Origin: Escherichia phage_vB_EcoD_Punny
DNA: 49,765 nucleotides
Sequence record: OL539444.1
Direction: 5' to 3' (one strand)
Below, piece after piece: positions 17 through 42,068 of the stretch (the stretch's first letter is position 1; each line of letters begins with the position of its first letter). The notes under the pieces were generated by a model, which searched no databases, had not been told where the DNA came from, and worked only from the letters and a program-made list of their open reading frames with translations. The translations under genes and the position numbers were made by a program.

Positions 17-40
17 AACCCGCCTTGCGCGGGTTTTTTT
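17..40 (+). terminator. rho-independent terminator
   Basis: Inverted repeat AACCCGC/GCGGGTT with 5-nt loop, then run of 7 T. Near-identical to the terminator at 16219-16242. Confidence 0.6.
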
Positions 41-62
41 GTGTCTGTAATTTAGCTATAAT
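25..62 (+). promoter_or_regulatory. possible late promoter overlapping terminator loop
   Basis: TTGCGC in terminator loop, then TGTAAT (46-51) and TATAAT (57-62). Spacing is not canonical, so weak. Confidence 0.25.
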
Positions 63-89
63 CATGCCTCAACAATGGAGGATTCTATT

Positions 90-614
90 ATGTCGAAAAA
101 AACAGAAGCGCCAGCGGCTGAAAGCCTGAATTTTAAGAAACTATGGAATAAGCAATATTCAGATCTCATTGGCACTAAACTTGATAAGCGCACAACGCTA
201 ACGCCAGAGCAGGTTATGAATTTGATTGTTCAGTATTTTGAATGGGCTGAATCAAACGCAATAAAGGCTGGTGAAACTGCCACATTTCAGGGGCGTGTTT
301 ATCAGGACACGATTCACAAGCCACGCATTTTCACATGGGAAGCGTTGAAGTTGTTTTGTGGTTTTTCCGGCACAGCACTAGCGAAATGGAAATTAAAGCC
401 TGGTTATGATGTTGTAATTGAATTTGCTGAATCGGTAATTAAAGAACAAAAATACCAGTTAGCGGCAAACGGAATGATTAACAGCACAATGATCGCAAAA
501 GAGCTTGGAATTGATAAGGGCGACACGTTCAATATTAGCGCCAATGCTGAAACGGAAGTTAACACGGAAGAAGCAATGAAAAACGCCGTCGCAAGCGTTC
601 TAAGTAAAATTTAA
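90..614 (+). CDS. terminase small subunit (putative)
   Basis: ORF directly upstream of and coupled to the large terminase; GGAGG RBS at 78-82 favours ATG 90 over ATG 75. Assignment is by position only. Confidence 0.5.
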   Translation: MSKKTEAPAAESLNFKKLWNKQYSDLIGTKLDKRTTLTPEQVMNLIVQYFEWAESNAIKAGETATFQGRVYQDTIHKPRIFTWEALKLFCGFSGTALAKWKLKPGYDVVIEFAESVIKEQKYQLAANGMINSTMIAKELGIDKGDTFNISANAETEVNTEEAMKNAVASVLSKI

Positions 615-616
615 AG

Positions 617-2197
617 GTGAATGCTATGTTGATTTGGGAAGATTTAACAAAACTTGAAAAGCTGGCTATTAAGGAATTAAGCACACACGATTTTGATACT
701 TTCGTTAAAATCTGGTTCCCGATCCAGCAGGGCGAAAAATGGATTCCTAACTGGCACCACCTTTATATTGCAAGGGCAATTGATGAAATTATTGAAGGTG
801 TGCGCAAAGATACCATTTTTAACGTAACGCCAGGTTCAGGCAAAACCGAATTACTTTCGATCCACTTTCCGCCTTATTCATATTTGAAATTGAACAAGGT
901 GCGAAATCTGAATATTTCGTTTGCTGATACACTGGTTAAACGTAACAGCAAGCGTGTGCGCGATCTGGTTAACTCGCGAGAATGGCAAGAGCTTTACCCC
1001 GCAAAAACTGGTACAAGCAAGGATGATGAATTCCAGATCCTTAATGACGCTGGCAAAGTTCGCCTGGAAATGATTAGTAAATCAATGGGCGGTCAGATTA
1101 CTGGTAGTCGTGGCGGTTACATCACTCCTGGTGTTTATTCAGGTTGTGTGACGCTTGATGATCCAGAAAAGCCTGATGATATGTTTTCGAAGGTGAAACG
1201 TGAGCGCGGTCAAATGATCGCAAAGAACACAATTCGATCACGTCGCGCACATTCAGAAACGCCGATTATCGTTATTCAGCAGCGTCTACACGCGCAGGAT
1301 ATGACCTGGTTTCTGATGAATGGCGGAATGGGTATTGAATTTGATCAGATATCAATTCCGGCGATGGTTACAGAGGAATACGGGAAATCGCTTCCTGATT
1401 GGTTACAGCCTCATTTTGAAAAAGATGTGCTTTCGTCTGAATACATCGTTATTGACGGCGTGAAGTATTATTCTTTCTGGCCTAGCAAGGAAAGCATTCA
1501 TGATCTTAAAGCGCTACGCGATGCGGATTTGTACACGTTCCTTTCTCAGTATCAGCAAGAGCCAATTGCTCTTGGCGGTAACGCAATTAACGTTGGATGG
1601 TTCCAGTATTACGGAACCGGAGAAAAATCAACGATGCCAAAACCGGATCGCTTTGATTATACGTTTATTACAGCAGATACCGCTCAGAAAGAAGGTGAGC
1701 TAAACGACTACAGCGTTTTATGTTATTGGGGCATGTTCAAAGGCCGTATATATTTTATTGACGGTGTGCGCGGAAAATGGGAGGCGCCAATGTTAGAAAC
1801 ACAGTTTAAAGCGTTTGTTAAACAGTGCTGGAACCGTAACAAAGAATGCGGAAACTTGCGTAAAATTTACGTGGAAGATAAAGCGAGCGGTACAGGTTTG
1901 ATCCAGAATTGCCGCAAAGCATTTCCGATAGAAATTACGCCAGTGCAACGCGATAAAGACAAAGTAACGCGCTGCATGGACGCTCAGCCAGTGATCAAGA
2001 ATGGTTATGTTGTATTGCCTGAATCGCATCACATGCTTGCTGAATTTCTGGCAGAGGCGGCGGCATTCACTTATGATGATAGCCATCCTCATGATGATAT
2101 TATGGATAACCTTTTTGATGCTGTTAATATTGAGCTTAACCTTGCTGATAATGCGGTTGATAGAATGAAGCGTTTAGCTGGATTAGCGAAGCGTTAA
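617..2197 (+). CDS. terminase large subunit
   Basis: 526 aa with Walker A-like TPGSGKT near the N-terminus and an acidic nuclease-like C-terminal half; follows the small subunit. Start is GTG 617 or ATG 626. Confidence 0.8.
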   Translation: MNAMLIWEDLTKLEKLAIKELSTHDFDTFVKIWFPIQQGEKWIPNWHHLYIARAIDEIIEGVRKDTIFNVTPGSGKTELLSIHFPPYSYLKLNKVRNLNISFADTLVKRNSKRVRDLVNSREWQELYPAKTGTSKDDEFQILNDAGKVRLEMISKSMGGQITGSRGGYITPGVYSGCVTLDDPEKPDDMFSKVKRERGQMIAKNTIRSRRAHSETPIIVIQQRLHAQDMTWFLMNGGMGIEFDQISIPAMVTEEYGKSLPDWLQPHFEKDVLSSEYIVIDGVKYYSFWPSKESIHDLKALRDADLYTFLSQYQQEPIALGGNAINVGWFQYYGTGEKSTMPKPDRFDYTFITADTAQKEGELNDYSVLCYWGMFKGRIYFIDGVRGKWEAPMLETQFKAFVKQCWNRNKECGNLRKIYVEDKASGTGLIQNCRKAFPIEITPVQRDKDKVTRCMDAQPVIKNGYVVLPESHHMLAEFLAEAAAFTYDDSHPHDDIMDNLFDAVNIELNLADNAVDRMKRLAGLAKR

Positions 2198-2211
2198 TGT
2201 GTAAAATCAAA

Positions 2212-2235
2212 GGCTGGAATATTCCGGCCTTTTTA
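2212..2235 (+). terminator. rho-independent terminator
   Basis: Stem GGCTGG/CCGGCC around palindrome GGAATATTCC, then TTTTT. Confidence 0.55.
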
Positions 2236-2249
2236 TTATGGGGGTATTT

Positions 2250-3545
2250 ATGAGCGACAAGGTAAAGGCCATTACTAAAGAAGATGGTTACAACGAAATT
2301 TTCGGATCTAAAGATGGAACGTTTAGGCCAAATGCTTTTTACATGCAAAGTGCGGCATTTAAAACGTTATCGCAATTTTATGAAGAAGATGGAATGGCGC
2401 GGCGCATTGTCGATGTTATTCCCGAAGAAATGGTAACGCCTGGTTTTAAAGTTGACGGCGTGAAAAATGAAAAGTCTTTTAAATCGCGTTGGGATGAATT
2501 GCGATTAAACGCTAAAATTATTGATGCGCTTTCATGGTCGCGTTTATTTGGCGGTTCTGCAATTCTTGCTGTTGTTTCTGATAACAGAATGCTGAAATCA
2601 CCTGTAAAGCCTGGTGCACAACTTGAAGATATTCGCGTATATGATCGCTATCAGATCACCATTCAGGAACGTGAAACTAATGCGCGGAGTGTTCGTTACG
2701 GTGAGCCAAAACTTTATAAGATCTCACCTGGCGGAGATATACCGGAATTCTTTGTTCATTACTCGCGTATTTGCATCATTGATGGTGAGCGCGTATCTAA
2801 TGAAAAACGCCGTCAAAATGATGGTTGGGGCGCAAGCATTTTAAACAAGCGTTTGATTGAGGCGATTATTGATTATAACTATTGCCAAGAATTAGCAACG
2901 CAATTGCTACGCAGAAAACAACAAGCAGTATGGAAAGCGCGTGATCTGGCTTTGATGTGCGACGATGAAGAAGGGCGCTATGCGGCGCGTTTGCGTTTGG
3001 CTCAGGTTGATGACGAAAGCGGAGTTGGTAAGGCAATTGGTATTGATGCAACCGATGAAGAATATGAGGTTCTCAATTCTGACGTTTCCGGCGTTCCAGA
3101 GTTCTTGCAGGAAAAGATTGATCGAATTGTTGCACTAACTGGCATTCATGAAATCATCCTCAAAAATAAGAACACTGGCGGCGTTTCAGCGAGTCAAAAC
3201 ACGGCGCTAGAGACTTTCTATAAGTTAATTGATCGCAAGCGCGGAGAGGATTACAAGCCGATTCTTGAATTCCTTTTGCCGTTCATGATCTCAGAAGCGG
3301 AATGGTCGATTGAATTCGAGCCGTTAAGCGTTCCGAGTGATAAGGATAAAGCTGAAATCATGGCTAAAAACGTTGAGTCAATCGTTAAGCTGAAAGCAGA
3401 GCAAGCGATCGATCTTAAAGAAACGCGAGATACTTTGCGATCAATCTGCCCTGACATTAAAATTAGTGATGGTGACAACATTGAACTACCAGATCCAGAA
3501 GAACAGGAACCGGAACCAGGAACGGAGGAATTAAACAATGAATGA
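2250..3545 (+). CDS. portal protein
   Basis: About 430 aa ORF immediately after the large terminase, acidic C-terminus; conserved synteny. ATG 2250 preferred over 2238, which lies in the terminator T-run. Confidence 0.75.
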   Translation: MSDKVKAITKEDGYNEIFGSKDGTFRPNAFYMQSAAFKTLSQFYEEDGMARRIVDVIPEEMVTPGFKVDGVKNEKSFKSRWDELRLNAKIIDALSWSRLFGGSAILAVVSDNRMLKSPVKPGAQLEDIRVYDRYQITIQERETNARSVRYGEPKLYKISPGGDIPEFFVHYSRICIIDGERVSNEKRRQNDGWGASILNKRLIEAIIDYNYCQELATQLLRRKQQAVWKARDLALMCDDEEGRYAARLRLAQVDDESGVGKAIGIDATDEEYEVLNSDVSGVPEFLQEKIDRIVALTGIHEIILKNKNTGGVSASQNTALETFYKLIDRKRGEDYKPILEFLLPFMISEAEWSIEFEPLSVPSDKDKAEIMAKNVESIVKLKAEQAIDLKETRDTLRSICPDIKISDGDNIELPDPEEQEPEPGTEELNNE

Positions 3546-4278
3546 TGTCTCATGGAGATTTCCAGAGGCAACGAGGCGCGACGTTGATCGCGCCTTACAA
3601 TTGCTTGTGAGGGATCTTGTTGTAAGAATGCGCCGTAACACAAAGCGCCTTAAATTTGATGATCAGGTTAGTGAGGCGGCGGCAGATAATGAATTATACG
3701 CAGAGGAATTAATTTCCGCATTCATCGCGCTACTGCCAACTTTCGCGCTATCCATCTATAAATTCAACTCAAAGGAATTTATCAGGATCGCAAATAAGAC
3801 AGGAGGCAAGAATAATTTAGCCGTCCTGTTGCTGATTGGTCGAGGGGCTAACGCTGGTGAATCGTGGTACGCGCCTAAATATCACGTATGGCGGCAAATG
3901 GTGCGCGACTCTATCAGAAAGATGGTTGACAATATTCTTGACGATTGGGAAATGCAAGTAAGGTTAGCCGAATTGCACGAAGCGGATCAGAAAAGATTAA
4001 ACGCAATTATCGAAAGGCGATTTAAGGTCTATAAAAATTGGGCGTCACGCCGCACTTCTGGTATAGTTGGCGCTTGGAATAGCGTGTTAATGTATCAGCG
4101 TTGTGTTGATGCTGGCGTTACCCATTATATTTGGCGCGGTCAGTTAGATGATCGCGAGCGTGAAAAACATTTGATGTGGGAAAAGAAACGGATCGCCTTA
4201 ACATCTAATCACGTTTTTCCTGGTGAGGAATTTAATTGTCGTTGTTGGGCGCAACCGGATTGGGAGACAGCAAAATGA
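3538..4278 (+). CDS. head morphogenesis / minor head protein (Mu F / SPP1 gp7-like)
   Basis: 246 aa ORF overlapping the portal stop (ATGAATGA); the position is typical for this family. Confidence 0.5.
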   Translation: MNDVSWRFPEATRRDVDRALQLLVRDLVVRMRRNTKRLKFDDQVSEAAADNELYAEELISAFIALLPTFALSIYKFNSKEFIRIANKTGGKNNLAVLLLIGRGANAGESWYAPKYHVWRQMVRDSIRKMVDNILDDWEMQVRLAELHEADQKRLNAIIERRFKVYKNWASRRTSGIVGAWNSVLMYQRCVDAGVTHYIWRGQLDDREREKHLMWEKKRIALTSNHVFPGEEFNCRCWAQPDWETAK

Positions 4279-5384
4279 AAAAGGTGCAACGTTTTGATAG
4301 CGTAAGAGTAAAGGCGCATTTTGATGAACATGGTTTTTTAGTTGATCGGCCTATTGTAGCGCGGATTGGTTTGCAGATTTACCAAACGCCATTTGGAGAG
4401 CGTAGAGAGTTCAGGCCAGCAAGCGAAGTATTCAAGGCTGATTCACTGGCAACCTATGCAGGAAAACCAATCACAGTAGGTCACGTCACCGTAACGCCGG
4501 AAAATGCGCGTAATGTCGTTGTTGGTACTTGTTCAGGCGCTGGAATCCCGAACGGGATCGGAGTTGAAGCGCCTTTGAATATTTACGCAAAGGATGCAAT
4601 TGAAAGCGCGAAGAAAAAACAAACGGCTGAAATCAGCGTTGGCTATACTTCAATTGATATTGATAAGCCAGGCTGGGGGTCTAATGAAACGGGCGAATAC
4701 ATCTTTGAAGAAGATCTAAAAGATGGTGAGAAGCCGCCGAAAGATTGGGTTAAGTTTGATGCGCTACAAACAAACATTAGCGTAAACCATATCGCGCTTG
4801 TTTTTAAAGGTCGTGCCGGAATTGCAAAATTGAATCTTGATAGCGAGCAGGAATTCCCGTATGATACTGACGTTAAACTAAATAAAGAGGACGAAGTTAT
4901 GACCGTTAAAATTAAACTTGATGGTGCTGTTGAGTTTGACGTGCCAAAAGAAGTTGCCACCTTTATCGAAACCGTAAAGGCAGATGCTGAAAAAGCCAAA
5001 ACCAAAGCCGACAGCCTGGAGGCAGAGCGTGACGCGCTACAGGCGAAAGTTGACGGCATTCCGGCGCAGATTGAAGAAGCTGTGAAAAAAGCAAAAGCTG
5101 ACGCTGATGAACATGCCGCACTGGTCGCTACCGCTTCCGAAGTTGGCGTAAAATGCGACGGCCTAACAGCCAAAGAAATTAAGATCGCATATGTGAAAGA
5201 GGTCATGGGTAATGACATTAGCGCAAAGGCTGATGCATATATTGATACCGCTTTTGATATCGCGAAAGAATCTGATAAAATGGCGGCTCAACGTATCGCA
5301 TTAAAAGGCGATGCAGCAAAAAACAAACAGGATGCAGCGGAAACCATTCTTGATCCTTCCGCACGTCTGAATAAAGCTAAGTAA
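4275..5384 (+). CDS. scaffolding / prohead core protein (putative)
   Basis: ATG 4275 overlaps the upstream stop (ATGA). C-terminal half is Ala/Lys/Glu-rich and coiled-coil-like; lies between portal and capsid genes. Confidence 0.45.
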   Translation: MKKVQRFDSVRVKAHFDEHGFLVDRPIVARIGLQIYQTPFGERREFRPASEVFKADSLATYAGKPITVGHVTVTPENARNVVVGTCSGAGIPNGIGVEAPLNIYAKDAIESAKKKQTAEISVGYTSIDIDKPGWGSNETGEYIFEEDLKDGEKPPKDWVKFDALQTNISVNHIALVFKGRAGIAKLNLDSEQEFPYDTDVKLNKEDEVMTVKIKLDGAVEFDVPKEVATFIETVKADAEKAKTKADSLEAERDALQAKVDGIPAQIEEAVKKAKADADEHAALVATASEVGVKCDGLTAKEIKIAYVKEVMGNDISAKADAYIDTAFDIAKESDKMAAQRIALKGDAAKNKQDAAETILDPSARLNKAK

Positions 5385-5396
5385 GGAGAAAATATT

Positions 5397-5876
5397 ATGG
5401 CTCAGATTTCAGCAAGTTATCATGTTGCAATGGCTCGCGCCTTGCCTGGTCAAGTTTCTGACACTTCCGCGTATAACATCGACGGCGCTTGTGTTCTTGA
5501 TGGTGATGCAGGATCAACAATTTATGTTGGCGTTGGTGTTCAACATGGCGGAGTTAGCGCAAGCGGTGAGAAATTAATTAAGGCTATGGCAGCGTCTGGT
5601 AATGCTTATGGTGTTGCTATTCGATCCAACTTCCAGACCACATCTAAAGATGGTCGCATGGTTTATGAGGCTGGTAGCGGAATTAACGTAATGACTAAAG
5701 GGCGCGTTTGGATGGTATCTGTAGAATCGGAAGCGCCAGCATTCAAAACAGCTATCAAACTTGATAATTCAGGACAGGTTGATTTAACGTCTGGATTAAT
5801 TGAAACCACTTGGATCGCAACTGGAGACTTTACGGAATTCCAAGGTCTAAAACTCGTTGAGGTTCAACTGGTATAA
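5397..5876 (+). CDS. capsid-associated protein, paralog 1 (decoration-like position)
   Basis: 159 aa; shares YNIDG, NV.TKGR.W and a similar C-terminal ...VQL end with the next ORF; occupies the slot between scaffold and major capsid. Confidence 0.35.
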   Translation: MAQISASYHVAMARALPGQVSDTSAYNIDGACVLDGDAGSTIYVGVGVQHGGVSASGEKLIKAMAASGNAYGVAIRSNFQTTSKDGRMVYEAGSGINVMTKGRVWMVSVESEAPAFKTAIKLDNSGQVDLTSGLIETTWIATGDFTEFQGLKLVEVQLV

Positions 5877-5881
5877 TAATA

Positions 5882-5905
5882 AGGCCGGATTATTCCGGCC
5901 TTTTA
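5882..5905 (+). terminator. rho-independent terminator between the two paralogs
   Basis: Stem AGGCCGGA/TCCGGCCT, loop TTAT, then TTTT. Confidence 0.6.
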
Positions 5906-5919
5906 TATATGGTGGTTTT

Positions 5920-6360
5920 ATGTCTGATTACGGTTCTATAATAGGTATAGTTGAAAATGGGTGCTTGGTAGATTCAAGCCTTTATAATATAGATGGCTCG
6001 CCAGTTATGGATGTTTCAGCCGTGATAGGTAAGGCCGTATGTGTTGATCGCATATCTTGCGGTTACAAAATAATCAGCCACAATTTTAATGAAAACTCAA
6101 ATCATTACGGAATCGTTACGCGTGATTATATGGATTTTTGCAAAGAATATTACGACGCCGGAGATCCGGTTAACGTAATAACTCATGGTCGAATTTGGGT
6201 AATCACTCAGGACGAACATGATATTCCATCGTATAAAGATCCTGTTTTTGTTAAAGACAATGGCTCTATATCAACAAGTGGATTTCCTACTAGTTGGTTT
6301 TTTACTGGCGAATACGTAAGATATTCACACGGATATATTTTACTATCAGTTCAGTTGTAG
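5920..6360 (+). CDS. capsid-associated protein, paralog 2
   Basis: ATG 5920 after the terminator; paralog of 5397-5876 (YNIDG, VNVITHGRIWV, C-terminal SVQL). Confidence 0.35.
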   Translation: MSDYGSIIGIVENGCLVDSSLYNIDGSPVMDVSAVIGKAVCVDRISCGYKIISHNFNENSNHYGIVTRDYMDFCKEYYDAGDPVNVITHGRIWVITQDEHDIPSYKDPVFVKDNGSISTSGFPTSWFFTGEYVRYSHGYILLSVQL

Positions 6361-6380
6361 CGTGCTAACACAAAAAACAC

Positions 6381-6409
6381 TTGAACGTTTAACAAAAAAT
6401 GCTATATTA
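6381..6409 (+). promoter_or_regulatory. sigma70-like promoter upstream of major capsid gene
   Basis: TTGAAC, 17-bp spacer, TATATT; followed by hairpin AAGCCGT/ACGGCTT at 6410-6430. Confidence 0.45.
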
Positions 6410-6449
6410 AAGCCGTTATTGTGACGGCTTTTCTATGAGGGGAAATATT

Positions 6450-7427
6450 ATGTCTAAAGAAAAAATTAAATTTGATGAATTTGAAGCGTCTGTGATTTCT
6501 AATCACCTGCAACTGCAAGGCGCTAAAAACGATGCGTCTGATATGGGGATTTGGACGGCTCAAGAGCTACACAAAATTAAGTCTCAGGCTTATGAGAAAG
6601 AATATCCGGCAGGTTCCGCACTGCGTGTATTCCCTGTAACGTCCGAGCTTTCCGATACTGACAAAACTTTTGAATACCAGACTTTCGACAAAGTAGGTCA
6701 CGCAAAAATCATCGCTGATTATACTGATGATCTGCCAACTGTTGACGCGATGATGACTTCTGAATTTGGTAAAGTGTTCCGCCTGGGTAATGCGTTCCTG
6801 ATTTCCATTGACGAAATCAAAGCAGGTCAACGCACTGGCAAGAGCCTTTCCACTCGCAAGGCAAACGCCGCACAGAATGCGCATGATCAGCTTGTCAATC
6901 ACCTGGTTTTCAAAGGCTCTAAGCCGCACAAAATTATCAGTGTGTTTGAACATCCGAACATCACAACTATCAACTCCGCAGGTTGGAACAACGCCGCAGG
7001 TACTGGTAAAAAGCCGAAAACAGCACAGGATGAATTAGAGCAAGCGATTGAAAAAATCGAAACGCTGACCAACGGGCAGCACCGCGCTACTCACATTCTG
7101 ATCCCGCCGTCAATGCGTAAGGTTTTGAGCGTTCGTATGCCGGAAACCACCATGAGCTATCTTGATTACTTCAAGCAGCAGAATGGAGGTATCACTATCG
7201 AATCCATTTCCGAGCTTGAAGATATCGACGGCGCAGGGACTAAAGCGGCGCTGGTTTACGAAAAAGATCCGATGAACATGAGCATTGAGATTCCAGAAGC
7301 GTTTAACATGCTGACCGCGCAACCTAAAGACCTGCATTTCAAAGTGCCTTGCACCTCTAAATGTACTGGCCTGACGATTTACCGTCCGTTGACGCTGGTT
7401 CTGATTAAAGGTCTTGTAGTAGGCTGA
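6450..7427 (+). CDS. major capsid protein
   Basis: About 325 aa ORF with GAGGGG RBS, own promoter and strong terminator immediately downstream; position after scaffold. Confidence 0.6.
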   Translation: MSKEKIKFDEFEASVISNHLQLQGAKNDASDMGIWTAQELHKIKSQAYEKEYPAGSALRVFPVTSELSDTDKTFEYQTFDKVGHAKIIADYTDDLPTVDAMMTSEFGKVFRLGNAFLISIDEIKAGQRTGKSLSTRKANAAQNAHDQLVNHLVFKGSKPHKIISVFEHPNITTINSAGWNNAAGTGKKPKTAQDELEQAIEKIETLTNGQHRATHILIPPSMRKVLSVRMPETTMSYLDYFKQQNGGITIESISELEDIDGAGTKAALVYEKDPMNMSIEIPEAFNMLTAQPKDLHFKVPCTSKCTGLTIYRPLTLVLIKGLVVG

Positions 7428-7443
7428 TAATTCAATTAATATA

Positions 7444-7470
7444 GGGAACCGTTAAAAGGTTCCCTTTTTT
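7444..7470 (+). terminator. rho-independent terminator
   Basis: Stem GGGAACC/GGTTCCC, 7-nt loop, then TTTTTT. Confidence 0.75.
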
Positions 7471-7488
7471 ATATATGGAGAAAAACAA

Positions 7489-7761
7489 ATGGCTAAAGAA
7501 AAAGAAATTACACTGGTTAACACTGGCGTTGCACTGATTATTATTGATCGCGTTGACGTTATGCCAGGTAAAGAAATTACCGTTGCGGAAAGCGTGTTAG
7601 AGCGGCAAGGCACTAAAGCACTTATGGCAGAAGGTAAGCTAACAATCAAAGATAACAGCGATCTCAATGCTGAAATCGTTGAAGCGTTTAAGAGCAAGCG
7701 CAAAAAAGATCCGAACGAAGGCAAGACAAAAAAAGAGCTTGAGGACGGCGGCGAGTATTAA
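7489..7761 (+). CDS. hypothetical protein, monocistronic between two terminators
   Basis: 90 aa ORF with basic C-terminus, flanked by terminators at 7444-7470 and 7769-7793. Confidence 0.5.
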   Translation: MAKEKEITLVNTGVALIIIDRVDVMPGKEITVAESVLERQGTKALMAEGKLTIKDNSDLNAEIVEAFKSKRKKDPNEGKTKKELEDGGEY

Positions 7762-7768
7762 TTAATAA

Positions 7769-7793
7769 AGGCGCTTATTTAGCGCCTTTTTTA
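7769..7793 (+). terminator. rho-independent terminator
   Basis: Stem AGGCGCT/AGCGCCT, loop TATTT, then TTTTTT. Confidence 0.7.
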
Positions 7794-7807
7794 TTGGGGG
7801 GTAAATC

Positions 7808-8580: not shown

Positions 8581-9013
8581 TTATTCGATCCGAGAATTTC
8601 ATGGCAATGTTGATAAATGGATCGAGCAAGTAGAAAGCGGATTGAATGACGTGATTCAGATTTTTGGTGAAAAGGTTCACGGCGCATTAGTTGATATTGC
8701 GCCAGTGGACACAGGACGATTCAAAGCCAATATGCAGATCACAGCAAACAAGCCGCCTCTTTACGCGCTCAATCAATATGATCCTGATGGTGAGAAAACA
8801 AAGGCGGAAGGTCGCAGGACGCTTTATGCTTTATTGCATGGCGGCGGCGCTATTAAATCAATATACTTTTCCAATATGCTGATTTACGCTAATGCTCTTG
8901 AATATGGTCATTCAAAGCAAGCGCCAGCGGGGGTATTTGGTATCGTTGCGATCCGGTTGCGCTCTTACATGGCGGAAGCGATAAGGGAGGCGAGAAAGAA
9001 AAATGCACTATGA
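8564..9013 (+). CDS. tail completion protein (putative)
   Basis: 149 aa ORF, translationally coupled; synteny. Confidence 0.35.
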   Translation: MRFMADYSIREFHGNVDKWIEQVESGLNDVIQIFGEKVHGALVDIAPVDTGRFKANMQITANKPPLYALNQYDPDGEKTKAEGRRTLYALLHGGGAIKSIYFSNMLIYANALEYGHSKQAPAGVFGIVAIRLRSYMAEAIREARKKNAL

Positions 9014-9395
9014 ATTATCTGTTGCGGTAAGAATGGCTCTGGCTCAAGAATACGAAAGCGAATATATGATCGCTTATGAAAACGTTGAATTTACGCCACC
9101 AAAAGGCGGCGGCATTTGGCTTAAATATGACTACAAAGAAGCAGATACAATAATTCATGATCTGAAAAGGAAATGCATTAGCTATATTGGAATGGTTCAG
9201 ATCGGAATTGAATTCCCGCCAGGATCAGGAATTGACAAGGCTCGCAAGCTGGCAAAAAATATTGCTGATTTCTTTGAAGATGGTAAAATGCTTTCGAATG
9301 GCTATATTTCAGAAGGTGCAAAAGTGCATCAAGTTCAGAAATCAGAATCAGGCTGGTTTTATCCAGTACGTTTTTATGTTCGTTATGATGGTTAA
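9003..9395 (+). CDS. tail terminator / completion protein (putative)
   Basis: 130 aa ORF directly upstream of the major tail protein; synteny. Confidence 0.35.
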   Translation: MHYELSVAVRMALAQEYESEYMIAYENVEFTPPKGGGIWLKYDYKEADTIIHDLKRKCISYIGMVQIGIEFPPGSGIDKARKLAKNIADFFEDGKMLSNGYISEGAKVHQVQKSESGWFYPVRFYVRYDG

Positions 9396-9409
9396 TAAAG
9401 GGGGCTATT

Positions 9410-10072
9410 ATGCACTTACCTAACGGAGCACAGATTTTTATTGAGAATACTCGCGCACAGGCAGTAAGCGCAACCAACGTTAGCAACGCTGAAAAACCGG
9501 AGTTCACTGTTGCAAGTGGCGGAACTGACTTTAAAAAGGGTGATTACATTATCGTTACCGCCTCAAGTTGGGGTAAATTGCTTGATCGCGTTCTGCGTGT
9601 GACGGCGGCTGAAGAAACTAAGGTTACTGTTGAAGGTATCGACACAACCGATACTAACGTTTTCCCGGCTGGCGCTGTAACTGCGAGCTTTGCGAAAATC
9701 AACGGTTGGACAGAGATCCCATGCGTACAGGACTTGGGGCAGGACGGAGGCGAGCAACAGTATTACAATTACCAGTGCTTGAGCGATGACCAGGAGCAGC
9801 AGTTACCAACCTATAAGAGCGCGGTATCACTGACTTACACATTTGCGCATGAATACGATAACCCGATTTATCCGCTATTGCGTAAGGCTGACGAATCCGG
9901 CGACGTTAAAGCATTGCGCATGTATGTACCAAAAGCGAAAGAAATGCGCCTTTGGGCTGGTGTGCTTTCTTTCAACGAGATCCCACAAACGGCGGTAAAC
10001 GAAATGGAAACCGTTTCTTTGTCGGTATCCCTGAAAGGTCGCTTTACTTTCCTCCCTGCTAACCAGGATTAA
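9410..10072 (+). CDS. major tail protein
   Basis: 220 aa ORF immediately upstream of the G/GT chaperone pair and tape measure gene (conserved order), followed by a terminator. Confidence 0.6.
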   Translation: MHLPNGAQIFIENTRAQAVSATNVSNAEKPEFTVASGGTDFKKGDYIIVTASSWGKLLDRVLRVTAAEETKVTVEGIDTTDTNVFPAGAVTASFAKINGWTEIPCVQDLGQDGGEQQYYNYQCLSDDQEQQLPTYKSAVSLTYTFAHEYDNPIYPLLRKADESGDVKALRMYVPKAKEMRLWAGVLSFNEIPQTAVNEMETVSLSVSLKGRFTFLPANQD

Positions 10073-10078
10073 TATTAA

Positions 10079-10102
10079 GGGGCGCATTGCGTCCCTTTTT
10101 TA
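10079..10102 (+). terminator. rho-independent terminator
   Basis: Stem GGGGCGC/GCGTCCC (one G-U pair), loop ATT, then TTTTTT. Confidence 0.55.
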
Positions 10103-10143
10103 TTTGATGTAATATCACCTCAATATTTAACCACTCAGGAGAA

Positions 10144-10464
10144 ATGACAATGGCTAAAATGAAATTGACTCTTGCCCCGCTTCCAGATTTCAAACTTCCA
10201 GTTAAATTTGTATTGCCGGATGGTAACGAGCAAAAAATTGTGTTTACCGTTAAGCATAAAAAGGCCAGCGAGATTCAAGAGCTTTACCAGAAAGAAGGTA
10301 TTAAAGATCCTGAATTCATCATGAATGTTGCCGTGGGTTGGGATCTGGAGGAAGAATTCAACGAAGAAAACGCGCAACTGTTAGTTGATTATTATCCTGG
10401 CGCGGCGCTGGCTCTTATGGGATCTTATTTAAGTGCGCTGGCAGGGCAACGCGTAAAAAACTAA
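10144..10464 (+). CDS. tail assembly chaperone (G-like)
   Basis: 106 aa ORF upstream of the tape measure gene; ends just after slippery heptamer A_AAA_AAC (10455-10461). Confidence 0.7.
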   Translation: MTMAKMKLTLAPLPDFKLPVKFVLPDGNEQKIVFTVKHKKASEIQELYQKEGIKDPEFIMNVAVGWDLEEEFNEENAQLLVDYYPGAALALMGSYLSALAGQRVKN

Positions 10465-10781
10465 AACGGGCGGTTTATCTGTATTATCAGAAACCGCCGA
10501 CAGATGCAGAATTGCAAGCCGTAGGATTAACCCGCGCAGACTATGAAGGAGAAGATCCGCCAGAGGTCATATTTGATGAAAGTATGATGCAATCATGGGA
10601 TATATTTTGCGCGATGGGTACACAGTGGCGTAGTGCTGGCGCTGGTGCTTACGGTTTTGATTATAATGTTTTGCCTATGTTATTCAGAATCTATAAAATA
10701 GACGATGAAGAAATGGCCTTAAATGACTTGCGCATCATGGAACAAAAAGCACTGGAAATGATGCAAGCAAATAACAAATAA
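10144..10781 (+). CDS. tail assembly chaperone GT-like fusion via -1 programmed frameshift
   Basis: The -1 frame from heptamer 10455-10461 is open into ORF 10512-10781; hairpin GGCGGTTT...AAACCGCC begins 6 nt downstream of the heptamer. Confidence 0.6.
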
Positions 10782-10804
10782 AGCGCCTACGGGCGCTTTT
10801 TTTA
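10782..10804 (+). terminator. rho-independent terminator / attenuator before tape measure gene
   Basis: Stem AGCGCC/GGCGCT, loop TACG, then TTTTTTT. Confidence 0.65.
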
Positions 10805-10818
10805 TGAGGGTAAAATAT

Positions 10819-13728
10819 ATGGCTGAACAATTTGCAGGTTTAACACTTGGCGTGAACGTCGAGCAGTTAAACAAAGCTGTTAAGTCGTTACAGGACTTTA
10901 AAAAAGCCAACGACGAAGCAAAGAAAGGCGTTGAGAGCTTTGTTAACGAGGAAGAAGTTGCAAAGCAAAAGGCTAAACAGTTAGCCGATGAATTAGCGAA
11001 ACAGAGCCGTGAATTTAAGAGAATTCAGGATACAGTTGATCCGACAGCGGCAAAAATGCGCAAGCTGTCACAGGCAGCAAGTGATCTTGATAAGCTATGG
11101 CAAAAAGGGATTGTACCTGATGAAACATTCTTCCAATTAGGGAGCATGTTGGAAACTCAGATCAGTAAATTGGAGCGCAACAAAAAGGCGCTTACGGAAG
11201 AAGGCCGCGCAGCGTTGGAAGAATCACGCGCCAAAGAGAAAGCAGCGGCAGCAGGAAAGAGCTTCCTTGCGGATCTAGAATCACAAGCGGCGGCTCTTGG
11301 AAAAACCAAATCTGAATTACTGGAAATGAAAGCCGCGCAACTTGGCGTAAGTGCTCAGGCCGCGCCATTCATTGCACAGCTTAAAGCGCAAGAGCGCCAG
11401 ATGAAATTAACCGGAATTAGCGCAGGGCAATATAACCAGGCAATGCGAATGCTTCCGGCTCAGATCACTGACGTTGTAACGTCGCTGGCTTCCGGTATGC
11501 CTGTTTGGTTGGTTGCAATCCAGCAGGGTGGACAGATTAAAGATTCTTTCGGCGGTGTTGGTAATACGTTTAAAGTGCTGTTGTCGTTTCTGAATCCGGT
11601 AAACGTTGGCCTTGCCGCATTAGCCGTTTCAATGGGTGCTCTTGTTAAGGCTGGTTATGATGCGTATAAGTCGCAACGTGACTTGCAAGAGGCGTTAGTG
11701 CTGACTGGTGGATATGCTGGCACAAACGGCGCACAGTTTGACAAGATGGCGCAGGATATTAATAACAGCACTGATGCGACCATTGGCAGCATTCGCGGCA
11801 TTGCAACAGAGCTTGCAAAATCTGGAAAATACACCATTGATCAGATTAAAGCCATTACGAAAACTACCGCTCAGTGGTCAACGGTAACGGGTGAATCAAG
11901 CGATAAGATTACTGGTTACTTTGATAAGATTGCTGGCGATCCGGTTAAAGGTCTTGCAGAGCTAAACGAGCAATTCAACTTTTTAAGCGAAGGGCAGTTA
12001 ACTTATATTGCAGACCTTGAGAAAACGAAAGGAAAAACGGAAGCAGTGACGGCGGCGACAAAGTTATTTGCTGATGTTATGGATCAGAGATTAGCTAAAC
12101 TGGCAGACTCCGCAACTCCATTAGAAAAGATGTGGACGAACATTAAAAAATGGGCGTCAGATGCTTGGGGATGGGTTGGAGATCATACGCTGGCGGCTCT
12201 TAACCTGATTATCGACGTTGTAGCCGGAACGGTTGAGCAGGTTAGATACTTGCTTAATCAGGGTGATATTCTCATTGGTGAATTTATTGTGTCGGCAACT
12301 AAGACGATGCAAAAAATCCCAGGTCTTGATAATGTTGGCGATTCTGTAATTTCGCAACAACAGAAGATCATTAATAACGCCAAAGAGAACAACAAGGAGT
12401 TATTAAAATCAATTGCCGAACGTAACGAGCGAGTCAAAAAAGGCGAGCAGGGTTACATTGACATGATGAAAAATCGTGCGGCGGTTGAACAGCAATATGC
12501 TACTAAAACAAAGGAGAATATCAGGAAGGAAGCCGAGGAATTAGCCAAACGCGATAAAAAGCAAAAGGCTGAAAAAGTTAAGGTATCGGCTGGCGATAAG
12601 CTGGAAGAACAATATCAGCGTGATATCCTGGCGTTAGAAACTCAATTAAGAGTTTTGAAAGAGCATAAGACGATCACTGATACCATAAGCCAGCAACGTA
12701 AATCTTTATGGGCTGAACAGGCTAAAATTCAGATTCTGCAAGAAGCCTCAACAAAGCGGCAACTTACTGATGAAGAAAAAAGCATTTTAGCCAACAAAGA
12801 TAAGATCCTAGCGATGGCTGAACAAAAAGCTATTTTAGGAGATCAGATTGTTGCACAAACGCGCCTTAATCAGTTGCAAGATAGCTCAATCAAGTTTATC
12901 CAGCAGCAGAAAGCAGCAACAGAAGCACTAGCCAAAACCAGAGGGTTAAGTGAACGTGAAGCAGCAAGAGCGGCGGAACGTGCAAAGGTTGAGGCTGATT
13001 ATCTTGCCAAAGGAGGCAAGGAAGGAGATCCGCAACTCACCGCAATGATGGATGCATTAGACAATCGCTATAAAGAGGAAGATGCTAAACGTGCTGATTG
13101 GTTGGCTGGCGCTAAAAATGCCTTTGCGGAGTACGGCGAGGAAGCAATGAACATGTATGATAATATCGGCAACATTGCTAGCCAGGCGCTAAACGGCCTA
13201 TCGCAACAAATGGCTGATTTTTTGACTACTGGACAAGCAAACTTCAAAGACTTTGCAAAATCGATCATTAGCCTTATTGTTCAGATGATCACAAAGATGG
13301 TTATCTTCAATAGCATTTCCGGCATGATGGGCGGCTCAACCTGGACGCTTGGAAGCCTTTTAAGCGGTGCTGGTTTTGCTGGCGGCGGTTATACTGGCGA
13401 CGGTGGCAAATATGATCCGGCTGGCGTTGTTCATAAGGGTGAGTTTGTTTTCACCAAAGAGGCAACGCAAAGAATCGGAGCTAAAAACCTGTATCGCATG
13501 ATGCGAGGTTATGCAAACGGCGGTCAAGTAGGAAGCGTGACAACTGGCGGCGCTGGCATCAATCGCGGTGCATCGCAATTTGCATTTGGTGATATCAACG
13601 TTAACATTGACAACGGTCAAGATCCAAAAGGGATGGAAACTGGTATCAAGATGATTTTCACTGAAATGATTCAACGGTCATGCTCGCAAGGTGGCGAGGT
13701 TTATAATTTTGTTCATGGGAGGGCTTAA
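10819..13728 (+). CDS. tail tape measure protein
   Basis: About 970 aa, long coiled-coil N-terminal region, Gly-rich hydrophobic segments near the C-terminus; follows G/GT. ATG 10819 preferred. Confidence 0.85.
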   Translation: MAEQFAGLTLGVNVEQLNKAVKSLQDFKKANDEAKKGVESFVNEEEVAKQKAKQLADELAKQSREFKRIQDTVDPTAAKMRKLSQAASDLDKLWQKGIVPDETFFQLGSMLETQISKLERNKKALTEEGRAALEESRAKEKAAAAGKSFLADLESQAAALGKTKSELLEMKAAQLGVSAQAAPFIAQLKAQERQMKLTGISAGQYNQAMRMLPAQITDVVTSLASGMPVWLVAIQQGGQIKDSFGGVGNTFKVLLSFLNPVNVGLAALAVSMGALVKAGYDAYKSQRDLQEALVLTGGYAGTNGAQFDKMAQDINNSTDATIGSIRGIATELAKSGKYTIDQIKAITKTTAQWSTVTGESSDKITGYFDKIAGDPVKGLAELNEQFNFLSEGQLTYIADLEKTKGKTEAVTAATKLFADVMDQRLAKLADSATPLEKMWTNIKKWASDAWGWVGDHTLAALNLIIDVVAGTVEQVRYLLNQGDILIGEFIVSATKTMQKIPGLDNVGDSVISQQQKIINNAKENNKELLKSIAERNERVKKGEQGYIDMMKNRAAVEQQYATKTKENIRKEAEELAKRDKKQKAEKVKVSAGDKLEEQYQRDILALETQLRVLKEHKTITDTISQQRKSLWAEQAKIQILQEASTKRQLTDEEKSILANKDKILAMAEQKAILGDQIVAQTRLNQLQDSSIKFIQQQKAATEALAKTRGLSEREAARAAERAKVEADYLAKGGKEGDPQLTAMMDALDNRYKEEDAKRADWLAGAKNAFAEYGEEAMNMYDNIGNIASQALNGLSQQMADFLTTGQANFKDFAKSIISLIVQMITKMVIFNSISGMMGGSTWTLGSLLSGAGFAGGGYTGDGGKYDPAGVVHKGEFVFTKEATQRIGAKNLYRMMRGYANGGQVGSVTTGGAGINRGASQFAFGDINVNIDNGQDPKGMETGIKMIFTEMIQRSCSQGGEVYNFVHGRA

Positions 13729-14075
13729 TGTTAGATGAATTTACCTGGTGTACGCAGATTCAGAGCGGCGGCGGTGTAATGACAACCACCAATAACGACA
13801 GGGAAGTTGTTTTTGGTAACGGCTATCGCCAAAAGGCATCTTCTGGATTTAACACGGAAAGGAGGGAGTTTTCTATTGTATATGTTGGCAATGATTATAA
13901 GGCTGTTAAAGCATTTATGACGGATCACAGGTTAAAGCCTTTCTTGTGGAAAACTCCAGACGGTAGTTTTGGGTTGTTTACCGTAAAAGCCGGAACGGTT
14001 GGACTAACGCCAATTAGCCGAACCGCTCAGGAAGTCAAAGCAACTTTTACGGAAGAATTTACATCAATGCGATAA
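13728..14075 (+). CDS. minor tail protein (lambda M-like)
   Basis: 115 aa ORF coupled to the tape measure stop; first gene of an M-L-K-I-J-like order. Confidence 0.5.
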   Translation: MLDEFTWCTQIQSGGGVMTTTNNDREVVFGNGYRQKASSGFNTERREFSIVYVGNDYKAVKAFMTDHRLKPFLWKTPDGSFGLFTVKAGTVGLTPISRTAQEVKATFTEEFTSMR

Positions 14076-14080
14076 ATCAA

Positions 14081-14103
14081 AGCCGCCTTGTGCGGCTTTT
14101 TTA
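14081..14103 (+). terminator. rho-independent terminator
   Basis: Stem AGCCGC/GCGGCT, loop CTTGT, then TTTTTT. Confidence 0.65.
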
Positions 14104-14116
14104 TTGTGTCTATAAT
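14088..14116 (+). promoter_or_regulatory. sigma70-like promoter with -35 inside terminator loop
   Basis: TTGTGC, 17-bp spacer, TATAAT; drives 14142. Confidence 0.45.
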
Positions 14117-14141
14117 GGTGCTTTATTGGAGGGCATAGAAT

Positions 14142-14900
14142 ATGGCTGAAAAACAGATCAAAAAGACTTTTGAAAATTGTCTGCAATCGCTTTTTCCTGG
14201 TGAGATTATTACTCTTATCGAAGTTGACGGCACGAAATTTGGTGCTCAGGTTTACCGATTTCACGCTGAAAATATCGCATACACGCCAGAGGAATTAATG
14301 CAAGCGCGTGAAACTGGAATATTGCCTCCGAAAGATATTAAGTTTCGCGGTGAAATTTACGGGGCGCGTCCTTTTGGCATCACAGGGATCGGATTTACCA
14401 GTAACGGGAAAGCAGAAAAACCACAATTAGCGCTTTCTAATTTAGATAGCCGTGTATCTGCTTTAATCAGATCCTATAATGGCATGATGCAAGCAAAGGT
14501 TACAATATGGGTTACATCGGCTGATTTAATTGATGATGAAGGTAATGTGGAGGACGGCGCATATAGAAAGTTGGTTTATTATATTGAGCGTCCGAATTTT
14601 GTTAATCAGACAGTTGCACGTTTCGAATTAACATCCCCTTATGATATGGATGGAATTATGATCCCGCCGCGACTCACTCAAAGCGTTTGTTATTGGGCGC
14701 AACGCGGATGGTATAGAAGCGGTAAAGGTTGCGGATATAACGGATCAGCAATGTTTGATAAAGACAATAATCCGGTAACAGATCCGAGTAAGGATTATTG
14801 CGCCGGAACGGTAACAGCTTGCAAATTGCGCTTTGGTGAACAAAATGAATTAGACTTTGGCGGTTGTGCTGTTGCTTCACTGTTGAGGAAAAACCAATGA
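14142..14900 (+). CDS. minor tail protein (lambda L-like)
   Basis: 252 aa ORF with Cys-rich C-terminus, in the L position. Confidence 0.5.
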   Translation: MAEKQIKKTFENCLQSLFPGEIITLIEVDGTKFGAQVYRFHAENIAYTPEELMQARETGILPPKDIKFRGEIYGARPFGITGIGFTSNGKAEKPQLALSNLDSRVSALIRSYNGMMQAKVTIWVTSADLIDDEGNVEDGAYRKLVYYIERPNFVNQTVARFELTSPYDMDGIMIPPRLTQSVCYWAQRGWYRSGKGCGYNGSAMFDKDNNPVTDPSKDYCAGTVTACKLRFGEQNELDFGGCAVASLLRKNQ

Positions 14901-15619
14901 TTAATGCAAAAATTAAACTTGAAATTATGCGACACGCTAATGATGTTTATCCTAATGAATGTTGCGGCCTGGTAACTCAAAAGTCGCGCGTTCAGAAATA
15001 TCACCGGATTGATAACGTTAGCAGTGAGCCGGAAAAGCATTTTGAAATGGACGCGATCCAATATGCAGATGTTGAGGATAGCGGCGCGGATATTATCGCC
15101 ATAGTTCACAGCCACACAGGGGAAGGGGCAACCACAATCCCTAGCGCACACGATTTATGCATGTGCGATGAAACTGGTGTTTCATGGATTATCGTGTCTA
15201 TTCCAGAGGGTGACATGCGAATTATAGAGCCTGAATCACGGCCTTTGATTGGTCGCCCATGGTCGCTTGGCGCTTATGATTGTTGGGGGCTGATTATGGC
15301 CTGGCATAAAGAGCAAGGCGTGATCCTGAATGATTTCCGAAAGCCGTATGAATGGTGGAAGCCGGAACATGGTGAAAACCTTTATCAAGATAATTACTTG
15401 AAAGAAGGTTTTATAGAAACAGGAGAGCCACCAAAGCCAGGTGATATGATCATAATGCAGTTGCAAGCGCCAGTATGGAACCACGCAGGAATTTATTTAG
15501 GCAACAATCAACTATTGCATCATGCATTCGGCAAGTTGTCGCGAGTTGATTTATATTCTGGATGGTATCAGGAACACACAACAATGATTTGCAGACATAA
15601 GGATCTGAAAAATGAATAA
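14897..15619 (+). CDS. tail assembly protein (lambda K-like; MPN/JAB + NlpC/P60)
   Basis: HSHTGEG...HDLCMCD JAMM-like motif and a downstream Cys...His (NHAGIYLG) NlpC/P60-like region. ATG overlaps upstream stop. Confidence 0.7.
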   Translation: MINAKIKLEIMRHANDVYPNECCGLVTQKSRVQKYHRIDNVSSEPEKHFEMDAIQYADVEDSGADIIAIVHSHTGEGATTIPSAHDLCMCDETGVSWIIVSIPEGDMRIIEPESRPLIGRPWSLGAYDCWGLIMAWHKEQGVILNDFRKPYEWWKPEHGENLYQDNYLKEGFIETGEPPKPGDMIIMQLQAPVWNHAGIYLGNNQLLHHAFGKLSRVDLYSGWYQEHTTMICRHKDLKNE

Positions 15620-16211
15620 GGTTATAAACGTAAAATTATCAGGCTCATTAGGTCGCCGCTTTGGTGTTTTTCATAAATACGCCGTTGAGAGTTGGCCTGA
15701 ATGCGTAAGGGCATTATCAAGCCAGGTTGAAGGATTCAAAGAATTTATGCAAAGTGAAATCGGATCAAAGATGAAATTTGCAATTTTCGTTGATGGTAAA
15801 AATGTTGGCTTGAATAATGATAGCGCATGGCGTTGCGCTCGCGAGGTTCGAATTGTTCCGGTTCCAACAGGTTCAAAATCTGGTGGTTTATTTCAGGTTG
15901 TTTTGGGTGCTGTTATTATGGTCACTGCGTTTTTCACTGGTGGTGCATCGCTGGCGGCTATGGGTGCTTTTTCATCGGCTGCATTTATGATGGGTGGCGC
16001 AATGGCTCTTGGCGGAGTAATGCAGATGATTAGCCCACAACAAGGAGGAATGAGAATGGAGAGCCAGAGCGCAGCAAATAAACCATCATATGCGTTTGGT
16101 GGTGCTGTTAATACTACGGCGGCAGGTTATCCGGTATGTTTGCCATATGGTTATAGAACGGTTGGAGGCGCTGTATTCAGTGCTGGCTCATACGCAGAAG
16201 ATAAACTTTAA
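15612..16211 (+). CDS. tail assembly protein (lambda I-like)
   Basis: 199 aa with Gly/Ala-rich hydrophobic C-terminal half; in the I position. Confidence 0.5.
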   Translation: MNKVINVKLSGSLGRRFGVFHKYAVESWPECVRALSSQVEGFKEFMQSEIGSKMKFAIFVDGKNVGLNNDSAWRCAREVRIVPVPTGSKSGGLFQVVLGAVIMVTAFFTGGASLAAMGAFSSAAFMMGGAMALGGVMQMISPQQGGMRMESQSAANKPSYAFGGAVNTTAAGYPVCLPYGYRTVGGAVFSAGSYAEDKL

Positions 16212-16218
16212 TTATGTA

Positions 16219-16242
16219 AACCCGCCGTTGCGCGGGTTTTTT
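16219..16242 (+). terminator. rho-independent terminator
   Basis: Stem AACCCGC/GCGGGTT then TTTTTT; nearly identical to 17-40. Confidence 0.6.
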
Positions 16243-16256
16243 GTTACATGTACAAT
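16228..16256 (+). promoter_or_regulatory. sigma70-like promoter with -35 inside terminator loop
   Basis: TTGCGC, 17-bp spacer, TACAAT; drives 16293. Confidence 0.4.
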
Positions 16257-42037: not shown

Positions 42038-42068
42038 TACCCCATCGAAACGAAACGAGGAAAACACA

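Follow-up and report, generated by a model that had tools for sequence, protein, structure and literature searches.

Four junctions between late genes of Escherichia phage vB_EcoD_Punny (sequence record OL539444.1; the window is the whole stretch of 49,765 nucleotides) are probably promoter-coupled intrinsic terminators, a reading to which we assign a rough probability of 0.65. They lie upstream of terS (site A), downstream of the major tail protein gene (site D), between the tail genes M and L (site B), and between the tail genes I and J (site C; Table 1). At each of them, some of the transcription arriving from upstream would be stopped by the short GC-rich hairpin with its T-run, and a new transcript would begin approximately 20–28 bp further downstream from a host sigma70 promoter that overlaps this DNA. 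A weak −35 box would be provided at sites B, C, and D by the loop and the beginning of the 3′ arm, while the rest of the 3′ arm and the T-run would form the 17-bp spacer in front of a near-consensus −10 box. At the terS junction, the −10 box sits 11 bp further downstream, which places the T-run at the −35 position; this promoter would rely on its consensus −10 box or, in relatives, on an extended −10 box. Transcription of the late block would pass one attenuator after another and be renewed before terS, G, L, and J, the capsid gene having a strong promoter to itself. The four sites and six uncoupled hairpins would split this 20-kb block into units whose RNA levels could be set separately.

The window is a complete T1-like siphovirus genome (Drexlerviridae, TLS/Stevie group), as indicated by its first 20 kb, which match Citrobacter phage vB_CfrD_BlueShadow at 100% identity and the phages Stevie and TLS at 94–97%. 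The packaging, head, and tail genes occupy bases 1–20,100 and are all located on the plus strand; gene names were assigned by homology to the annotated T1 genome. To our knowledge, T1-like phages have neither a polymerase nor a sigma factor of their own. The in silico search in the TLS paper yielded three sigma70-type promoters only, none of them within the 20-kb structural block, and the TLS annotation lists the hairpins of all four coupled sites as terminators (T28, T42, T46, and T49). Both GenBank records of T1 show terminators only at the four junctions, with no promoters annotated. A search of the window against Rfam gave no match to an RNA family.

Anatomy of the proposed coupled sites

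An earlier reading of this DNA from its letters alone (the original prediction) had located −35-like hexamers in or next to terminator loops at two late junctions. At both (14081–14116 and 16219–16256) the motifs were recovered as described, with TTGTGC and TTGCGC exactly 17 bp before TATAAT and TACAAT, respectively. Site D (10077–10115), an additional site of the same design that had been missed, was found alongside B and C by an exact-pattern search. The hairpins of the four sites comprise 7–9 pairs with RNA folding free energies (ΔG) of −10.4 to −13.5, are followed by runs of six to seven T, and are all situated between plus-strand genes. The gap between T-run and −10 box is 8–9 bp at sites B, C, and D and 16 bp at site A. 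From termination to start, both ends of which are predicted, the distance would be approximately 20 bp at B, C, and D and 28 bp at the terS site. Conservation and register argue for the proposed stop-and-start structure with the −35 box in the loop at B, C, and the additional site D, and against it at 17–62 and at the capsid gene, to which the original prediction had extended it.

The near-identity of the hairpins at 16219–16242 and 17–40 that had been noticed was verified, one inserted G, which makes hairpin C longer, being the sole difference. The TGTA..AAT-like sequence noted downstream of hairpin A did not hold up as a −10 box. The hexamer TGTAAT (46–51), 15 bp from the loop TTGCGC (25–30), was considered as the −10 box of site A and rejected: it has G at the essential position 2, and its counterparts in relatives (TGCAAT, TGAATT, CGCAAT) lack A2 as well. 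The true −10 box is the consensus hexamer TATAAT at 57–62, a position occupied by TATAAT, TAAAAT, or TATACT in every clade. Because the loop TTGCGC is located 26 bp from this hexamer, site A has no −35 box in its loop; the −35 position (34–39) falls into the T-run, where TTTTTT matches the −35 consensus in 2/6 positions. In most clades except this one, the terS −10 box is preceded by TGn, that is, by an extended −10 box. The stem AACCCGC/GCGGGTT is invariant in all clades and the conserved −10 box follows approximately 20 nt past it, while the loops vary (cttgc, ttcg, tccg, tacg). Most clades have UUCG-type loops (ttcg, tacg, or tccg) at this junction, where the −35 register falls off the loop, which serves as an internal control.

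Conservation across T1-like phages

The strong evidence against a chance arrangement is the comparison of these sequences with relatives, not the window alone. The comparison set consisted of 107 related loci (phage T1 and 106 loci from IMG/VR) whose major tail or L proteins are 53–100% identical to those of the window. Ten late junctions were extracted, and the sequences were grouped into clusters differing by more than four bases. A −10 box (at least 5/6 matches, at most 30 nt from the hairpin) was present in 78 of 85 clusters at the four coupled junctions (pre-terS, major tail protein/G, M/L, and I/J). By the same criterion, it was found in 9 of 55 clusters at the five junctions (portal, orf5920, orf7489, orf7808, and tape measure) at which the hairpin abuts a Shine–Dalgarno (SD) sequence. 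Of the 77 clusters at the G, L, and J junctions, 59 have a loop TTG, compared with 8 of the 55 at the uncoupled junctions (Fisher P = 8.5e-13, uncorrected for phylogeny).

The register was analyzed in 66 clusters from the G, L, and J junctions that were anchored on the −10 box, positions 2 and 6 of this hexamer being imposed by the selection. In this alignment, T, T, and G are found at positions −35, −34, and −33 in 55, 59, and 47 of the 66 clusters, respectively. The −10 profile is T58, A66, T41, A57, A64, T66, with the second and sixth values reflecting the selection. The spacer between loop TTG and −10 box measures 17 bp in 41 clusters and 16 bp in 8 (49/66), and 15, 18, or 19 bp in 5; the TTG is absent in 12. 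An A at the seventh nucleotide past the −10 box is enriched (45/68 sequences). At the orthologous place, each of the 66 clusters has a GC-rich stem of its own, 5 bp or longer, and a T-run. The stem types include GCCGC, CCCGC, GGCCCGC, CCCCGC, GCCCC, GCGCCC, GGGGCGC, CCAGC, GGGGGC, and GGCGGGGC. Nine or more different stems and loops of 3–8 nt (cttgt, cattgt, ctttgt, cttttgt, cgttgc, c-att-g, ttgc, ttgt) carry the TTG, whose distance to the −10 box is preserved because extra loop bases always lie 5′ of TTG. For the I/J set, RNAalifold revealed both-sided changes in 4/7 pairs. Applied to a MAFFT alignment of the M/L set, the program gave no consensus structure, as hairpins of unequal length had been misaligned and the alignment was out of structural register; the M/L structure was assessed by per-sequence hairpin detection instead.

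The individual junctions follow this pattern to different degrees. At the major tail protein/G junction, the loop TTG is present in 17/17 clusters on three different stems, and the −10 box of site D reads TAAAAT, TAGAAT, CATAAT, or TATCAT in relatives, 16–17 bp from the loop TTG. The −10 box is present in 30/30 clusters at I/J and kept in 27/30 at M/L. Clades that have lost it at M/L (L028, L029, L031, and L034, with the loops tagc, taac, ttat, and gtat) are also devoid of the loop TTG, and their SD sequence has been brought up to the T-run, which provides a second internal control. The M/L loop tttac of Webervirus yields TTTACG 17 bp before TATGAT, a better −35 box (4/6 matches) in the same register. 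In T1, the coding DNA of which is approximately 68% identical to the window in this region, the junctions before L and J carry the hairpin CCCGCCTTGCGCGGG with a run of seven to eight T, and TTGCGC is followed after 17 bp by TAGAAT or TATAAT; 3′ of the major tail protein gene, TTGCAC stands 17 bp before TAAAAT.

The general form of the original prediction, that late genes use such elements, went too far, since six late hairpins (beginning at 2209, 5881, 7443, 7767, 10780, and 20083) have no coupled promoter. Their loops are atat, ttat, gttaaaa, tattt, tacg, and taac, and none of the six has a −10 box or an in-register loop TTG. In five of them, the SD sequence of the next gene follows 3–12 nt downstream, leaving no space for a promoter; the sixth (20083–20110) ends the module. 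These five strong hairpins must be leaky because essential genes, for example those of the portal and the tape measure protein, lie behind them; they must be either leaky attenuators or RNA-stabilizing 3′ and 5′ structures. The positions of the five are kept across the family, with loops of the UUCG, UACG, or AT type. Hairpins that are weaker at the coupled sites were considered as a distinguishing feature and rejected: ΔG in the window is −10.4 to −13.5 for coupled versus −13.1 to −17.7 for uncoupled hairpins, but the family means are both −12.95 (Mann–Whitney P = 0.39, family-wide).

Insertions of approximately 0.5 kb that coincide precisely with the M/L or I/J hairpin junction were observed in the IMG/VR loci L028 (2465–3001) and L017/L018 (5050–6041). 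The former adds an extra open reading frame after the hairpin; ahead of J, the insert of the latter contains a hairpin of its own and a dyad-like palindrome, TAGCAATTAGTGCTA. Mobile genes appear to insert preferentially at the M/L and I/J junctions. Among the database records, the host labels of OR786094, MG065671, MG065679, MG065680, and others look doubtful. The record "Streptococcus phage MBBL140" is 94% identical to this enterobacterial phage across 97% of the 20 kb, and approximately 20 "Campylobacter phage" records match the window at approximately 72%.

Table 1. Hairpins, promoter elements, and neighboring features of the late region; positions refer to the window, and promoter elements and start sites are predictions
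Feature	Position	Strand	Remarks
Hairpin A, AACCCGC-cttgc-GCGGGTT	17–35	+	T-run 34–40; RNA ΔG −10.4; terminator of the preceding operon, upstream of terS
Pre-terS −10 box, TATAAT	57–62	+	Predicted start ~69; SD GGAGG 77–81; terS ATG 90
Uncoupled hairpin with T-run	2209–2232	+	Portal-gene SD within a few bases
Other uncoupled hairpins	5881–5902, 7443–7465, 7767–7789, 10780–10799, 20083–20110	+	Comparison class
Capsid promoter, TTGAAC, 16-bp spacer, TATATT	6381–6408	+	−35 box 6381–86, −10 box 6403–08
Hairpin directly downstream of the capsid promoter	6409–6431	+	RNA ΔG −11.1
Hairpin D, AAGGGGCGC-att-GCGTCCCTT, with T-run	10077–10097	+	3′ of the major tail protein gene; RNA ΔG −13.5
−35-like TTGCGT of site D	10087–10092	+	Within hairpin D
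−10-like TAATAT of site D	10110–10115	+	17 bp past TTGCGT; predicted start ~10122
Tape-measure chaperone gene	ATG at 10144 or 10150	+	Downstream of the predicted start of site D
Hairpin B, AAAGCCGC-cttgt-GCGGCTTT, with T-run	14079–14099	+	Between tail genes M and L; RNA ΔG −11.0; TLS terminator T46
−35-like TTGTGC of site B	14088–14093	+	Within hairpin B
−10 box of site B, TATAAT	14111–14116	+	17 bp past TTGTGC; predicted start ~14123; SD 14128–33; gene L ATG 14142
Hairpin C, AAACCCGC-cgttgc-GCGGGTTT, with T-run	16218–16239	+	Between tail genes I and J; RNA ΔG −11.6; TLS terminator T49
−35-like TTGCGC of site C	16228–16233	+	Within hairpin C
−10 box of site C, TACAAT	16251–16256	+	17 bp past TTGCGC; predicted start A16263; J ATG 16293
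Degenerate dyad/direct-repeat motif ATAGCACAAAAGGTTAAAA	16271–16289	+	Predicted J 5′ leader, overlaps J SD; 2 mismatches; TLS DR8

Alternative explanations

Several points weigh against the reading of these junctions as promoter-coupled terminators. The hexamers TTGTGC, TTGCGC, and TTGCGT agree with the −35 consensus TTGACA in 3/6 positions, namely TTG alone. This is why a standard scan misses these promoters, and a consensus promoter scan with a threshold of 9 of 12 listed none of the four sites. The careful in silico search in TLS called no promoters there either; the blindness of the 9-of-12 rule to the four sites probably explains their omission from earlier annotations. The predicted distance from termination to start, approximately 20 bp (28 bp at terS), is larger than the 10-bp mode of the bacterial elements discussed below, although it lies inside their 35-bp window. 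No start-site, RNA sequencing, or RNA-end mapping for T1-like phages (Drexlerviridae) was found in the literature; anatomy, conservation, and register of the sites were observed directly, and all termination and initiation by RNA polymerase and the exact start points are inferred from them. The clusters of the comparison are phylogenetically related, so that the P values are inflated and represent an upper bound on significance. Furthermore, constitutive sigma70 promoters alone leave the timing of late transcription unexplained.

Two further points concern the loop itself. In 12 of the 66 clusters, the −10 box is kept without a −35-like loop, which means that the loop TTG is dispensable (helpful, not obligatory) or that those promoters work otherwise. 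Such cases are the I/J junction of Webervirus, where a long stem with the loop ata or gta is followed by TACAAT, and the clades L035/L037 and L038/L045; neither Webervirus I/J nor L035/L037 has an extended −10 box that might compensate for the absent −35-like loop. In addition, the I/J hairpin CCCGCCTTGCGCGGG is conserved beyond the needs of a stem or of a three-base −35 box.

These last observations lend some weight to a different explanation, according to which the sites are −10-based promoters without a loop −35 box, assisted by the T-tract or by a phage-encoded activator or polymerase modifier responsible for late timing, while the conserved loop (CUUGC and its relatives) acts on the RNA level, for instance as the target of a termination-modulating factor. 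The −10 box is kept in clades with loops that are not −35-like, and the hairpin, nearly identical at I/J across several genera and recurring at other junctions in T1 and in the window, exceeds what a TTG requires. Just downstream of the I/J −10 box, a degenerate dyad motif is present in all clades, kept in nearly all of them as (A/C)AGCACAAAAGGTTAAAA; it hints at regulation by a dyad-binding protein and could be an operator or an RNA-level element. Late-gene timing would otherwise be left without an explanation. However, changes in loop length (5–7 nt, or a 3-nt loop) would upset a structure-specific RNA contact, yet the distance from TTG to the −10 box is fixed. The very different loop tttac still reads as an in-register −35 box, the loops relax to the UUCG type exactly where the register leaves the loop, and no candidate factor was identified. 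We regard this explanation as unlikely.

Somewhat less probable still is the view that the sites are terminators or attenuators only, and that the −10-like hexamers are A/U-rich leader elements in transcripts reading through from distant upstream promoters, for example that of the capsid gene. Such elements could be RNase E or other processing sites, ribosome-loading enhancers, or sigma-dependent pause signals. This would be in line with the published annotations of T1 and TLS, which have terminators only here, and with the six late hairpins without a coupled promoter, five of which abut the ribosome site of an essential gene and must hence be read through. The lack of a window-wide enrichment of TTGNG-N17-TANNAT also fits. 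Against it, the hexamer varies in the manner of a sigma70 −10 box, with positions 1, 2, 5, and 6 nearly fixed (2 and 6 selected for) and position 3 free. More than 60 clusters keep its distance from the hairpin constant, and where the SD sequence has shifted to the T-run, the hexamer and the loop TTG are lost together. A co-varying TTG 17 bp upstream would be superfluous for an A/U-rich enhancer or a cleavage site.

Chance is the weakest explanation. Judged by the window only, the support for a real arrangement is modest: TTGNG-N17-TANNAT was seen 5 times versus 2.6 expected, which is non-significant, and shuffling of the loops and downstream sequences of 11 late hairpins gave P = 0.005–0.017 for two strict sites. 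Three of the five matches are on hairpins, and the non-chance signal is the location of the matches, not their number. A chance overlap of AT-rich intergenic sequence with hairpin loops can hardly account for an arrangement kept family-wide at orthologous junctions despite extensive sequence change.

Related promoters, known systems, and implications

The capsid gene had been named as a further case, with a similar combination. Promoter and hairpin are indeed both present, but the promoter is located upstream of the hairpin and is not embedded in it, an order opposite to that of sites B, C, and D. From the sequence, we infer that the capsid start (predicted at ~6415) falls within the 5′ arm of the hairpin at 6409–6431; for this reason, locally started capsid RNA would miss 3/4 G–C pairs. 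The equivalent in T1 (TTGACG, 16 bp, TATTAT) is an annotated promoter with the same promoter–hairpin order. At the capsid site of Webervirus, the hairpin comes first and the promoter approximately 25 nt later. An inverted degenerate dyad motif (6387–6405, minus strand) was observed within the spacer of the capsid promoter, and a protein bound to it would block this promoter.

The contrast drawn in the original prediction between the late sites and the dyad-motif units of the non-structural genes proved to be real: the late sites have no upstream dyad and consist of a hairpin with a T-run. The dyad/direct-repeat motif ATAGCACnnnTTGnTAAAA occurs in 19 copies between 21585 and 47713 of the window, on both strands (e.g., 29655–29673 and 41994–42012) and always oriented along the gene direction. 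A −10-like hexamer (CATAAT, TATAAT, TATAGT, TATCAT) is located 22 bp past TTGnTA in 17/19 copies and 21 bp past it in 2/19. Because of this distance, the dyad would be centered approximately 42 bp upstream of the predicted start, as in class II activator sites; a −35 box with an abnormal 22-bp spacer is the alternative. Like these units, which correspond to the 21-nt direct repeat of TLS (aaATAGCACnnnTTGnTAAAA), the late sites have a −10 box at a fixed distance from a conserved upstream element, and both are interwoven with GC-rich inverted repeats. Unlike the late sites, the dyad units carry their 19-nt dyad upstream, 22 bp before the −10 box, mostly lack a T-run, and are confined to 21.5–47.7 kb.

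In many dyad units (41994–42050, 43696–43745, 46329–46375, and others), the −10 box is placed within the loop of a GC-rich inverted repeat, such as GGGGTA-gtttggCATAAT-TACCCC, GGGGT-tgcggTATAGTg-ACCCC, or AAGGCCA-tttgtTATAG-TGGCCTT; due to this position, the predicted start would fall in the 3′ arm. At 26540–26594 (minus strand, primase side), TATCAT stands 22 bp past a dyad motif and occupies the loop of a complete terminator, GGCCTGGCATGG-tttatcat-CGTGCCAGGTT with six T. This terminator directly precedes the SD sequence of the next gene, and T1 shows the same arrangement, its loop hexamer being TAACAT. RNA initiated at 26540–26594 would be devoid of the 5′ arm and would escape the terminator.

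It is conceivable, although we consider it the less probable case, that T1-like phages build much of their transcription program from promoters interwoven with hairpins. Three registers may be distinguished: the −35 box in the terminator loop (tail junctions), the −10 box in the loop of a terminator or inverted repeat (26540–26594 on the minus strand and many dyad units), and the start in the 5′ arm (capsid gene). In each of them, incoming transcripts would be acted on by the hairpin, whereas RNA initiated locally would be free of it or start past it. Such a compact stop-and-restart logic would supply the long-missing late promoters of the family and set the ratios of its structural proteins.

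Promoter-coupled terminators have been described in bacteria, with RNA ends mapped in Acinetobacter, E. coli (540 pairs), and Bacillus (Fletcher et al., bioRxiv 10.64898/2026.08.19.745784, August 2026). There, start sites lie approximately 10 bp (maximum 35 bp) past the termination sites, and the −10 box follows the T-tract. By mutagenesis, stem-loop DNA was shown to be able to serve as the −35 box and the T-tract to favor promoter activity; termination was also reported to become more efficient when the coupled promoter is active, via collision of polymerases (bioRxiv 10.64898/2026.08.19.745784). The word "phage" is absent from the text of this preprint. The phage sites resemble these systems in that an intrinsic terminator is situated between tandem, functionally related genes and that the enzyme would be the E. 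coli sigma70 holoenzyme. Further likenesses are a candidate −10 box just past the T-tract, stem-loop DNA as a putative −35 box, the T-tract in the spacer, and a predicted start at a distance of no more than 35 bp. They differ in belonging to the structural operon of a virulent phage, in being conserved family-wide, and in being known from sequence alone; in a distance of approximately 8 bp from T-run to −10 box and a predicted termination-to-start distance of approximately 20 bp instead of the 10-bp mode; and in the location of the −35 TTG specifically in the loop of a short stem of 5–7 bp. The use of terminator DNA as part of the promoter, as in the bacterial systems, is indicated by sequence and conservation at sites B, C, and D, and not at site A.

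Terminator and promoter activity are also combined in one short element in the case of the T7 class II terminators, which the E. coli polymerase uses as sigma70 promoters of the extended −10 type (Bao and Forster, bioRxiv 10.64898/2026.02.12.705533). In contrast to the late sites described here, which have a classical hairpin and T-run for the host enzyme, they have no hairpin, act on T7 RNA polymerase, and have a TGn extended −10 promoter.

For the late region of T1, "transcriptons" were proposed by Roberts et al. (2004), as summarized in PMC11447400. Going by this summary, the units terS–terL, G to M, L-K-I, and J would fit if the predicted promoters are active. The units starting at the portal, orf5920, orf7489, orf7808, and tape-measure genes have a terminator and no promoter of their own. 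The TLS authors stated that transcriptons could not be confirmed. An overlap of a −35 box with a terminator loop in T1-like phages was not described in the literature reached, which excluded the T1 promoter list of 2004. As this kind of element has been known since 2026, the principle is no longer new; the phage instance is new, and it is conserved family-wide.

Late transcription is a gap in the biology of T1-like phages, for which the coupled sites supply four testable late promoter candidates, or five including the capsid promoter. Terminator-only labels from annotation pipelines overlook the promoter, and cargo inserted at these junctions by phage engineers would disturb both termination and initiation. 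If the proposed reading is true, the coupling of termination and initiation on one stretch of DNA would extend from bacterial chromosomes to virulent phages, among which it is conserved in genera with Escherichia, Citrobacter, Salmonella, Shigella, and Klebsiella as hosts.

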